Positions 1,475 through 4,423 of a stretch of DNA of 13,347 nucleotides are shown one piece after another (position 1 is the stretch's first letter; the number at the start of each line of letters is the position of its first letter). The notes below the pieces were generated by a model that worked only from the letters and a program-made list of their open reading frames with translations, did not search any database and was not told where the DNA came from. The position numbers were made by a program, and so were the translations under genes. The stretch lies in IMG/VR virus record IMGVR_UViG_2713896781_000005, one strand, 5' to 3'. The DNA comes from a virus. Its lineage: Duplodnaviria; Heunggongvirae; Uroviricota; Caudoviricetes.

Positions 1475-1894
1475 CTATGATGCGTTTTGTGCTTTCTTTT
1501 TACGGATTTCTTCGTAGATCATATTGTAATACTGTTTTTTCTCTTCAAGAGTTTTTAATAATTTATCCGCTTCACTTTCTGGCAGTTCGTCTAAGAGATC
1601 TAAAAAAATACGTTGTCGTGGCGTTAGAACCCTTGTTTCATAACTGGAGGCTGTGTTCGTTGATGATGAAACGATACCATCCATCCATCCCCGGGGTAAC
1701 CCAAAGGACTCTTCGATAATCTCCACCATATCATCAGCGATCCGTTTTTTTCCCTTTTTCCCCTCTGGGTACAACATTCTTGATACATAAGAAGGCTCGC
1801 GCCCGATCTTTCTGGCCACGTTAACCGCTTTACCATCGCATTTCTCATCACGAATTTTGATGAGTTGCTGTCGTCTAAATTCATATTTGTCCAT
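1475..1894 (-). CDS. prophage repressor, DicA/RacR-like HTH (XRE-family) protein, 139 aa, no peptidase domain
   Basis: N-terminal helix-turn-helix segment (AVNVARKIGREPSYVSRMLYPEG); C-terminal LLDELPESEADKLL motif resembles DicA-type repressors as I recall them; divergent from a cro-like gene. No obvious Shine-Dalgarno before the ATG, so possibly leaderless. Confidence 0.75.
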   Translation of the reverse strand: MDKYEFRRQQLIKIRDEKCDGKAVNVARKIGREPSYVSRMLYPEGKKGKKRIADDMVEIIEESFGLPRGWMDGIVSSSTNTASSYETRVLTPRQRIFLDLLDELPESEADKLLKTLEEKKQYYNMIYEEIRKKKAQNAS

Positions 1895-2276: not shown

Positions 2277-2685
2277 ACACATCCGCATGGCGATGAATGC
2301 CTGGGCGCGTCCTGATGGCGAAAAAGTTCCAGCAGCTGGAATAACCCAGGCTTATTTTGAGTTGGGTATGACGTTCCCAGAACTGTATGACGACAGCCAT
2401 CCGGAAGCCCTGGCTCGCAATACCCAGAAAATTTTCCGCTGGGTAGAGAAAGACACCCCTGATGCTGTTGAAAAAATGCAGGCTCTGTTACCGGCGATCG
2501 AAAAGGCGATGCCGCCTTTGCTGGTGGCCCGTATGCGCAGCCACAGTTCTGAATATTACCGTGAGATCGTCGAACGGAGGGATCGGCTGGTGAAGGATGT
2601 CGATGATTTTGTTGCGTCAGCGGTTGTTTTGTATGACCAGATGAATCGCGGCGGCCCGGCAGGGAATGCTGTGGTGATGCACTAA
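2260..2685 (+). CDS. YdaT-family protein (CII-like regulator position), 141 aa
   Basis: Starts MKIKHEHI and ends ...VVMH, matching my recollection of Rac YdaT; overlaps the cro-like gene by 17 nt; AGGAG upstream. Confidence 0.6.
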   Translation: MKIKHEHIRMAMNAWARPDGEKVPAAGITQAYFELGMTFPELYDDSHPEALARNTQKIFRWVEKDTPDAVEKMQALLPAIEKAMPPLLVARMRSHSSEYYREIVERRDRLVKDVDDFVASAVVLYDQMNRGGPAGNAVVMH

Positions 2686-2707
2686 AAGCACGGTGTTCGG
2701 GGGTTTT

Positions 2708-3676
2708 ATGAGCAGCAAGCTTCATGGTCTTGTCTGGGAAGGGTGCGCCTTCACCGGCATGATCTTATCCAGGGTGGCGGTTATGGCCCGTCTTGCAGAC
2801 TACAGCAATGACGAGGGCGTGTCATGGCCTGCCATTGAAACTATCCGGCGTCAGATCGGTGCAAGAAGTGAATCCACAGTGAAATCGGCTATTGCAGAAC
2901 TGGCGAAAGAGGGCTGGCTGACGAAGGAAGAGCGTAAGGTCGGTGGGCGTAATGTAAGCAATATCTATCGGCTTAATGTGGAAAAACTCGAAGCAGCTGC
3001 GGCGGCGGCGCGTGAGTCATATAAACCGAAAAGAAAAATTAGCCCGGCAAAAAATGACCCGTTAACAGTTGACCCGTCAAATATTGACCCCTCAACGGTT
3101 GACCCGTCAAATTTTGATGGATCAACTGTTGATAAAAAACTGCCGATTAGGGGGGCGATGATTGACCCCGATCCGTCAGTATTAAAACCTGATCCGTCAG
3201 ATAAAAGATCTTCTTGTCCGGACGTTTCACTGCCGGACGAAAAACAAGCATCACCGGTCGAGCGATTTCTGGAGAAACACCCGGATGCGCATACCTGGAA
3301 TGTACCAAAGCGACAGTGGGGAACCCGGGAGGATTTGACGTGTGCACAGTGGATCTGGGGACGGGTTGTTGCGTTGTATGAACAGGCCGCCAGTGATGAT
3401 GGGGAGGTATCACGCCCCAGAGAGCCTAACTGGACGACCTGGGCGAATGATGTGCGCATGATGCGTATGCTGGATGGACGTAGTCACCGACAGATTTGTG
3501 AAATGTTTGGGCGTGTTCAACGGGATTCGTTCTGGGTAAAAAACATCATGAGTCCGGCAAAACTCCGGGAAAAATGGGATGAACTGGTTATCCGCCTGGG
3601 GCGTTCGCCCGCGCAGCGTTGCGTGAATCATATTTCTGAACCGGATACCGAAATTCCGCCGGGTTTCAGGGGGTAG
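2708..3676 (+). CDS. replication initiator, lambda O-like (N-terminal winged-helix replication domain, internal iteron-encoded repeat linker)
   Basis: N-terminal segment (LSRVAVMARLADYSNDEGVSWPAIETIRRQIGARSESTVKSAIAELAKEGWL) is typical of phage replication-initiator HTH domains; immediately precedes a DnaC-like gene. ATG 2708 (GGGGG 4 nt upstream) preferred over the GTG at 2693. Confidence 0.65.
   Translation: MSSKLHGLVWEGCAFTGMILSRVAVMARLADYSNDEGVSWPAIETIRRQIGARSESTVKSAIAELAKEGWLTKEERKVGGRNVSNIYRLNVEKLEAAAAAARESYKPKRKISPAKNDPLTVDPSNIDPSTVDPSNFDGSTVDKKLPIRGAMIDPDPSVLKPDPSDKRSSCPDVSLPDEKQASPVERFLEKHPDAHTWNVPKRQWGTREDLTCAQWIWGRVVALYEQAASDDGEVSRPREPNWTTWANDVRMMRMLDGRSHRQICEMFGRVQRDSFWVKNIMSPAKLREKWDELVIRLGRSPAQRCVNHISEPDTEIPPGFRG
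3054..3140. repeat. iteron array (about six 14-bp units, core TTGACCCGTCAA) inside the initiator gene; likely replication origin
   Basis: Tandem repeats seen directly: atgacccgttaaca / gttgacccgtcaaa / tattgacccctcaac / ggttgacccgtcaa plus two degenerate units and further TGACCCCGATCCGTCAG copies at 3161-3200; they encode the DPxxVDPSxxD peptide repeat and are followed by an A-rich stretch, as in ori-lambda within gene O. Confidence 0.55.
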
Positions 3677-3682
3677 CGCACC

Positions 3683-4423
3683 ATGAAAAACATTACGTCA
3701 GGTGGTGTTCTGGCAAGAGTCAGCAGATTTGTGCCGCAGGATGCAATCCCTCCGTACCGTACGGTGGCGGAGTGGCGGGAATGGCAGCTTGCTGAAGGGC
3801 GTAAGCGAAGCGAGGAGGTTAATCGTCTGAATCATCAGACGCGGGTTGAAAAAATCATTAACCGCTCCGGTATCCAGCCGCTTCACCGGAAGTGTACGTT
3901 CGGTAACTACCGGGTGCAGAACGATGGTCAGCGCCATGCCCTGAGTCAGGCGAAATCCATTGCGGCAGAGCTGGAAGGCGGCTGTACGAATTTTGTTTTC
4001 AGTGGCAGGCCTGGCACAGGAAAAAACCACCTGGCGGCGGCTATTGGCAACCACCTTCTGGCGAAAGGTCGCAGTGTGATTGTGATAACAGTGGCGGATG
4101 TGATGCTGGCGTTACATGGCAGCTACGACAACAAAAACTCGGGCGAAAAATTTTTGCAGGGATTGTGTGGCGTTGACCTGCTGGTACTGGATGAAATTGG
4201 CATGCAACGGGATACGCGTAATGAGCAGGTCACGCTGAATCAGATTGTTGACCGCAGAACGGCATCGTTACTCAGTGTGGGGATGCTGACAAATCTTAAC
4301 CATGCAGCGATGAATACACTTCTCGGCGAGCGGGTGATGGACCGCATGTCCATGAACGGTGGTCGCTGGGTGACGTTTAACTGGGAGAGCTGGCGTCCGA
4401 ACGTCAGCCAGCACAGGAACTGA
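3683..4423 (+). CDS. DnaC-like replicative helicase loader (IstB-type AAA+ ATPase)
   Basis: Walker A GRPGTGKNHLA and Walker B LLVLDEIG; overall DnaC-like layout; directly downstream of the initiator. Confidence 0.85.
   Translation: MKNITSGGVLARVSRFVPQDAIPPYRTVAEWREWQLAEGRKRSEEVNRLNHQTRVEKIINRSGIQPLHRKCTFGNYRVQNDGQRHALSQAKSIAAELEGGCTNFVFSGRPGTGKNHLAAAIGNHLLAKGRSVIVITVADVMLALHGSYDNKNSGEKFLQGLCGVDLLVLDEIGMQRDTRNEQVTLNQIVDRRTASLLSVGMLTNLNHAAMNTLLGERVMDRMSMNGGRWVTFNWESWRPNVSQHRN

Follow-up and report, generated by a model that had tools for sequence, protein, structure and literature searches.

In the virus record IMGVR_UViG_2713896781_000005 (Caudoviricetes), of which we analysed a stretch of 13,347 nucleotides (nt; hereafter the window), a tandem array of short dyad-symmetric sites lies inside the replication initiator gene of a lambdoid prophage (2708-3676). 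We conclude that nt about 3038-3238, in the linker-coding part of this gene, is probably the replication origin of the prophage. Codon usage among relatives makes it highly probable that the block containing the array is a functional cis-acting DNA element. The candidate origin would join the lambdoid origins already known to lie within initiator genes, a common and in principle unsurprising arrangement; what would set it apart is that its DNA-binding domain is of another kind, its repeats are more closely spaced and its conserved core bears GATC sites. An initial annotation had named the array as the best candidate for the origin, and the comparisons below support that choice by inference from DNA-level selection, from the position in the linker and from a repeat type that tracks the type of the N-terminal domain of the initiator.

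The initiator gene, and the units, boxes and domains described within it, are given on the plus strand. Tandem Repeats Finder resolved the array into about five copies with a period of 15 base pairs (bp), or five codons; a 30-bp super-period scores better (3043-3117, 84% matches, score 101). The core array (3054-3128) comprises five units of 15 bp, each built on the dyad core TTGA(C/T)-N(2-4)-(G/A)TCAA, namely ATGACCCGTTAACAG (starting at 3054), TTGACCCGTCAAATA (3069), TTGACCCCTCAACGG (3084), TTGACCCGTCAAATT (3099) and TTGATGGATCAACTG (3114). The fifth unit carries TTGATGGATCAA and has an inverted centre, its best match to the core being on the minus strand. The core array is flanked by a degenerate leading unit, TTAGCCCGGCAAAAA (3039-3053), a weak in-register match with three mismatches, and by a degenerate trailing unit, TTGATAAAAAACTGC (3129-3143), a half-site only that contains an A6 run. 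The initial annotation had described about six tandem 14-bp units followed by an A-rich stretch. The array itself stands, far beyond chance, but its period is 15 bp by both Tandem Repeats Finder and the register of the units, its count becomes five good units plus one or two degenerate ones, and the A-rich stretch reduces to the A6 run of the last degenerate unit, with nothing longer, in a segment of 72% A+T (3106-3141).

The 12-mer TTGACCCGTCAA, with up to two mismatches, gives seven strand-hits in the window, all within 3054-3125, against 1.25 expected, a number reached in 1 of 200 shuffles. Each site is a dyad, with minus-strand matches to the core TTGAC-CC-GTCAA at the same positions as those on the plus strand; the initial annotation had called this core near-palindromic. 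No other multi-copy tandem array occurs in the 13.3-kb window. The array is in frame with the open reading frame (ORF) 2708-3676 and, because 15 bases equal five codons, reads as a peptide repeat, NDPLT-VDPSN-IDPST-VDPSN-FDGST-VD, in agreement with the DPS(N/T)xD-type linker noted before. Its five clear and two degenerate units (3039-3143) are located within the initiator coding sequence and between the N- and C-terminal domains. An Rfam search returned no RNA family in or near the array region. A consensus promoter scan found nothing between 2000 and 4500, on which ground an internal promoter formed by the TTGAC motifs was rejected; involvement of DnaA boxes was likewise rejected, their matches being at chance level (9 against 11.4 expected).

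The strongest evidence that the array acts as DNA comes from its codons. We sampled 80 loci encoding relatives of the initiator, one genome per species, from Escherichia, Shigella, the Klebsiella group, Erwinia, Pantoea, Edwardsiella, Morganella, Proteus, Providencia, Yersinia and others, and analysed the 74 with an intact ORF. Codons for amino acids (aa) 111-177 (3038-3238) form a block under DNA-level constraint, which we take as the extent of the putative cis-acting element: normalised codon entropy at conserved residues is 0.82 in the N-domain, 0.23 in the block and 0.70 downstream of aa 180, and the frequency of the same codon given the same residue is 0.40, 0.85 and 0.47, respectively (N-domain versus linker, Mann-Whitney p = 1e-14). 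The block is therefore constrained independently of the protein. When repeat units were picked by peptide alone (x-[DE]-x-S-x), serine was encoded by TCA in 19 of 19 units in the subfamily to which the window belongs and in 90% of the 212 from the other subfamily, compared with 12% of serine codons in the N-domain of the same genes; for lysine, AAA accounts for 94% of codons in repeat units versus 59% in the N-domain. An overlapping or antisense gene was rejected as the cause of this fixation, each of the five alternative frames being open in at most 5 of the 74 loci; these frames carry stops in nearly all loci, and hence the minus-strand ORF 2965-3459 is not conserved. Since synonymous codons are near-fixed and no alternative frame is conserved, about 200 bp are constrained as DNA. 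The same codon-fixation signature offers a simple and general means to delimit cis-acting DNA hidden in coding sequence.

The substitutions that do occur follow the symmetry of the sites. The variable V/I/F residues all use xTT codons, so that the TT of TTGAC is kept, and the variable P/A/T/G residues alter the central bases only, a change of P to G turning the centre from CC to GG. Read from the aligned codons, the amino-acid variation tracks the dyad and not the peptide, a pattern that a peptide-level explanation cannot yield. It is exceedingly unlikely, then, that the repeat is a low-complexity peptide linker generated by replication slippage with no role as DNA. Such a linker would agree with the predicted disorder of the segment, with a copy number that changes in 15-bp steps and with the mutation of some core positions in close relatives, but it would leave unexplained that synonymous codons are near-fixed in 74 species-level loci while those of the flanking domains of the same genes are saturated; the varying residues are exactly those that spare the dyad arms, and the use of GAC for aspartate in the array but GAT at two boxes downstream of it is beyond what peptide constraint can explain.

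These downstream boxes belong to the most strongly fixed DNA of the region, which is not the array but the 60-70 bp that follow it. A second box cluster (3162-3202) consists of TTGACCCC, then GATCCGTCAGTA (3170-3181) and GATCCGTCAGAT (3191-3202), 21 bp apart. The boxes at 3170 and 3191, which the initial annotation had omitted, each overlap a GATC (Dam) site. Four GATC sites cluster modestly within 3120-3210 (p about 0.045 under random placement). All 74 relatives retain one or more GATCC-type boxes, and 55 of them retain two GATCC(A/G)T(C/T)A boxes, 18-24 bp apart. At the two downstream boxes aspartate is encoded by GAT, which creates GATC, in 100% of loci, compared with GAC in 81% of cases in the tandem units. 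This position-specific choice suggests, at the level of sequence, that Dam sites are selected beside the adjoining A/T-rich junction.

The junction itself, CAGTATTAAAA...GATAAAAGATCTTCTTGTCC (3175-3220), is a candidate unwinding region, collinear with the A/T-rich arm present in the origins of phi80 and lambda; its A+T content is 65% over 3175-3214, relative to 48% for the ORF. Boxes and junction share the fixed layout ..GGGGATCCGTCAGTA..(A/T-rich)..GATCC(A/G)TCAGATAAAA..CTTCTTGTCC, and the resulting core of about 65 bp (GATCCGTCA boxes, A/T-rich junction, ..CTTCTTGTCC) retains the same codons from Proteus to Escherichia regardless of the C-terminal domain attached. It is conceivable, though on balance we think it rather unlikely, that this core serves as a portable 'origin core' common to these loci and fired under the control of Dam methylation and SeqA, and that its initiator-DNA assembly differs in geometry from the lambda O-some. 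The geometric part of this idea follows from the 15-bp, head-to-tail arrangement of the dyads, which, if read so, would place neighbouring dimers on opposite helix faces.

The initiator encoded around these sites has 322 aa and comprises an N-terminal winged helix, a disordered linker and a lambda-O-like C-terminal domain. RefSeq labels the same coding sequence 'helix-turn-helix domain-containing protein'. The whole protein aligns with PHROG 391, 'replication initiation O-like' (E 5.2e-107; residues 1-322 with all 298 positions of the profile), which bears out the initial assignment of the array to an O-like initiator ORF. The N-terminal domain (aa 1-104; 2708-3019), presumed to bind the iterons, matches Pfam HTH_36 (E 2.3e-6, above the cut-off). 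Its AlphaFold2 model comprises helices and a β-hairpin wing (predicted local distance difference test, pLDDT, 74-89), for which Foldseek found only weak, generic winged-helix matches (winged helix-turn-helix regulators and the DnaD N-domain; best E 6.5e-3); a search by sequence returned no solved structure for the domain. The linker (aa 110-180) is predicted to be disordered (pLDDT below 50) and coincides with the DNA-constrained block. Because the element lies in such a segment, the protein can tolerate any peptide that the DNA dictates (DPS, DGS, EGS and so on).

The C-terminal domain (3254-3613), modelled as helical over aa 183-297 (pLDDT mostly 70-92), is homologous to those of lambda O and phi80 gp15 and is of the lambda O type. 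By BLASTP it is 43% identical to lambda O aa 188-277 (E 2e-25), a match that extends to aa 302 of the initiator, and 35% identical to phi80 gp15 (E 2e-25). These alignments cover the C-terminal half only; the N-terminal halves do not align with either protein. With a homologous C-domain and unalignable N-halves, the protein is an O-family initiator whose DNA-binding domain has been exchanged for one of another family.

Comparison with related prophages, one of the checks called for initially, confirmed the array and tied its type to the N-domain. A motif-free lag-15 autocorrelation detected a 15-bp periodic array at ORF nt about 290-400 in nearly every locus, with about 2-9 units (3-9 in nearly all), and close E. 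coli relatives differ by exactly one 15-bp unit (185 versus 170 nt between anchors). The N-domain type of the window, ..KLHGLVWEGCA.., goes with (A/G)TTGA(C/G)...TCAA units, and the SfIV type, ..KL(T/S)xYVWD(G/A)CA.., with TCTGAC.C.TCAAAA units. This pairing of repeat type with N-domain type holds across at least three unrelated C-terminal domains and, as read from the sequences, is supportive rather than strong evidence for a link between repeat and initiator. In moving together, N-domain and array behave as modules, in the way known of lambda O and ori.

A mosaic joint lies at about 3215-3225: many prophages of E. coli, a group with 91% identity overall, keep the N-domain and repeat block near-exactly. 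The C-terminal allele of this group differs from ..TCTTCTTGTCCGGACG (about 3215) onward. Such a joint just past the block, with another C-terminal allele beyond it, and the fusion of the same N-domain and linker to at least three types of C-domain are what one would expect if the linker DNA were a recombination 'joint', kept similar by repeated exchange of lambdoid modules and not by a function of its own. We consider this very unlikely. Conservation of the block reaches from Proteus and Providencia to Escherichia, with synonymous sites saturated in the adjoining N-domain, repeated exchange would drag along at least one flank, and neither phased dyads nor a position-specific choice between GAC and GAT is expected of a passive joint.

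The step from a cis-acting element to an origin draws on comparison with lambda, whose iterons and AT-rich tract in the middle of gene O are established by experiment, the origins of lambda, 933W and P27 having been tested by electrophoretic mobility shift assay, footprinting and plasmid replication (PMC7466680). Like ori-lambda and the six-iteron origins of the Shiga toxin phages 933W and P27, the window has dyad sites in the linker of the initiator gene, a modestly A/T-rich region after them, a helicase-loader gene next and a position downstream of a predicted pR-like promoter. In the ori-lambda type, as in the family of the window, the number of iterons varies between relatives and alters protein length (PMC7466680). 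The lambda and phi80 records annotate iterons in the same inter-domain linker as the window array, and in a DNA alignment the arrays and the A/T-rich junctions after them are collinear across all three (window, CAGTATTAAAA..GATAAAAGATCTTCTTGTCC; phi80, CAGTATTAAAAGATCTTCGTCC; lambda, GAAAAGATTATTCGTCA), with the motif TAAAAGATCTTC(G/T)TCC collinear with the annotated phi80 gp15 sites and the lambda iterons. The initial statement that the array mirrors ori-lambda in gene O accordingly holds for linker position and for the C-domain, but not for the N-domain, which is of the HTH_36 type, nor for the 15-bp spacing. The boxes of the window are 12-bp dyads every 15 bp, whereas lambda iterons measure 18-19 bp and recur every 20-24 bp; unlike lambda, the window also has a second class of boxes overlapping GATC, a DnaC-like loader in place of P, and a DnaT-like C-terminal tail. 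The phi80 origin in gene 15 (gp15 sites annotated in JX871397) shares the homologous C-domain and a similar junction after the repeats, and differs in having four sites about 21 bp apart of another sequence (..TTCCCGAAAACGGGAA..), an N-domain of the lambda O type and a P-like partner, gp14.

Constraint on DNA does not by itself specify function, and the array might instead be a protein-binding site other than an origin: an autoregulatory or road-block operator, bound by the initiator or by another helix-turn-helix protein of the module (YdaS/YdaT-like, DUF1627) and controlling downstream expression, or a site of the partition or packaging type. Tight 15-bp tandem sites resemble centromere and operator arrays more than they do two-turn iterons, and the A/T-rich region is modest. 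We nevertheless hold a function other than replication to be improbable, given that the array occupies exactly the place at which the phi80 and lambda origins are annotated, with a homologous C-half and a collinear A/T-rich junction, that the box type follows the N-domain of the initiator itself across C-terminal fusions and gene neighbourhoods, and that the replication region holds no other iteron-like array to serve as origin.

Several observations count against an origin at 3038-3238. Our literature search for these repeats, or for a mapped origin of this initiator family, returned nothing, no phage record was found with a rep_origin annotated at this position, and tblastn recovered only relatives of at most 72% identity, none with an annotated origin; by megablast, no phage record covers the region. 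The N-domain matches only HTH_36 and, weakly, DnaD_N in Pfam, with no match to the Phage_rep_O family of lambda O, and so is not of the lambda O type, and the 15-bp spacing is unlike the roughly two-turn spacing of lambda and phi80 iterons. The covariation of N-domain and box represents essentially one evolutionary split and counts as a single observation. Close relatives carry substitutions at core positions (TTGGCCC, TTGCCCC, TTAACCC), which implies that individual boxes are dispensable or that some prophage copies are decaying. Lastly, the A/T-rich region is only about 2 standard deviations less stable than the window average and ranks about 215th-365th among overlapping segments of 30-40 bp, intergenic regions being less stable; taken as a guide to unwinding, least-stable DNA speaks neither for nor against opening at this region.

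If nt 3038-3238 is the origin, initiation might proceed as follows. Early rightward transcription from a predicted pR-like promoter would produce the initiator and cross the candidate origin, with transcriptional activation assumed by analogy with lambda. Dimers of the winged-helix N-domain would then bind the dyads TTGAC-CC-GTCAA in five or six boxes, with about 3 bp between sites; at a spacing of 15 bp, adjacent dimers would occupy almost opposite sides of the helix, and the 30-bp super-period would return alternate units to roughly the same face. Two further boxes (GATCCGTCAG..), each over a Dam site, would bring the initiator next to the junction at 3175-3220, where, to judge from collinearity with the phi80 and lambda origins, the strands may open. 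The lambda-O-like C-domain and the DnaT-like tail would finally recruit host DnaB through the adjacent DnaC-like loader.

The tail, AQRCVNHISEPDTEIPPGFRG, comprises the last 21 residues of the initiator (3611-3673) and was matched by phmmer to the Protein Data Bank chains 2ru8, 6aep and 9zbt. E. coli DnaT ends in an almost identical C-terminal tail (..SEPDSQIPPGFRG), a resemblance that accounts for 'primosomal protein I' annotations. DnaT is encoded next to dnaC, and how it recruits DnaB/DnaC is still unknown according to a 2026 paper (PMC13377028); a tail common to DnaT and phage initiators may be a docking peptide. Immediately downstream of the initiator in the window, a gene for a DnaC-like helicase loader (3683-4423, plus strand) provides a loading partner of the DnaC type, not the lambda P type. 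The loader matches Pfam IstB_IS21, PHROG 50 'DnaC-like helicase loader' and NCBIfam NF009043 (474.8 bits, above the cut-off), and, below the cut-off, the DnaC equivalog (E 1.4e-90). Such a gene follows the initiator in the window and in about 1,500 E. coli genomes. Among 28 species-level relatives with a GFRG-type tail (loci among L082-L157), none has a DnaC-like gene within 1.2 kb downstream, and a pairing of the DnaT-like tail with a phage DnaC-like gene is not supported. Given this count, the tail may engage host DnaB-DnaC directly, the phage DnaC-like gene being perhaps an optional addition.

Other initiator genes also carry repeats. Gene 18 of P22 and phage L is a lambdoid initiator gene with its own distinct short repeats, taken as the origin; in phage L there are six imprecise copies of an 11-bp sequence, and the origin was assigned merely by inspecting the sequence (PMC8022706), on evidence comparable to ours. 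These genes differ from that of the window in their repeats and in the family of the initiator, and the partner is a DnaB-type helicase. The initiators of phages SfIV and SfII and of related prophages, labelled 'primosomal protein' or 'replication protein O', share the N-domain family (about 66% identity), a 15-bp array, the GATCCGTCA block and the GFRG tail. Their box flank is TCTGAC...TCAAAA, compared with (A/G)TTGAC...TCAA in the window, and unlike the window the species representatives with a GFRG tail, including the SfIV-like Shigella flexneri locus L087, are without the downstream DnaC-like gene. Iteron-plasmid origins (RepA/pi/RepE) have iterons of about 17-22 bp in helical phase, nearby DnaA boxes and a Rep protein with tandem WH1-WH2 domains; the window, with its 15-bp spacing, chance-level DnaA boxes and a single winged helix-turn-helix joined to an O-like helical domain, is not of this type.

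The module of initiator and repeats is very common: matching DNA is present in 2,098 of 5,426 complete E. coli genomes, among them enterohaemorrhagic lineages (O103 and O157, for example), and the Enterobacterales at large have related modules. Conceptually, the result is the textbook lambda arrangement with a different DNA-binding domain. Knowledge of the start site and of the domain that reads it would help to predict competition or cross-activation among co-resident prophages, and would aid the interpretation of induction and of toxin-phage amplification as well as replicon-typing schemes for lambdoid prophages without lambda-type O and P.

The surroundings of the initiator gene are lambdoid in order: a cI-like gene (1475-1894, minus strand), genes in the cro (1995-2276) and cII (2260-2685) positions, the initiator, the DnaC-like loader and then genes of the nin-region type. 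Over nt 2600-3800, the initiator region, the window shows 100% identity with a prophage that E. coli O103 strain RM8385 carries beside rspB, in a comparison confined to this region; the window genes further downstream appear to differ. The cro and cII positions (1995-2685) are filled by YdaS-like and YdaT-like proteins, respectively, members of Pfam 'toxin' families; by analogy with the lambdoid setting, they more probably act as Cro/CII-type regulators than as toxins.

Between the cI-like and cro-position genes, a consensus scan predicted a pair of pR-like and pRM-like promoters (1901-1969), the pR-like one at 1942-1969 on the plus strand. An exact 13-bp direct repeat, ACCTGTGGGTATT, at 1931-1943 and 1955-1967, 24 bp apart, overlaps these divergent promoters, and its copies are probably repressor operators. 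A near-perfect long palindrome, TACCCATAGGTATTTAAAAAGTAAATACCCATGGGTA (16 pairs; 1396-1432), is followed by a T-run on the minus strand and is terminator-like; it has the motif (A)CCCA(T/C)(A/G)GGTA in common with the operator-like repeats. Further downstream, two adjacent direct repeats of 32-33 nt, 75% identical, lie at 7859-7923 within a DUF551-containing ORF (7436-8149), and runs of N (masked or unknown bases) break the window at 8635-8650 and 9618-9667. Rfam matches above the gathering score comprise the sok antitoxin RNA (8446-8621), a tRNA (12869-12928), the small RNA STnc100 (13048-13256) and, on the minus strand, the anti-GcvB small RNA AgvB (13257-13318). The sok match points to a hok/sok module, and hokD is annotated in the RM8385 prophage.

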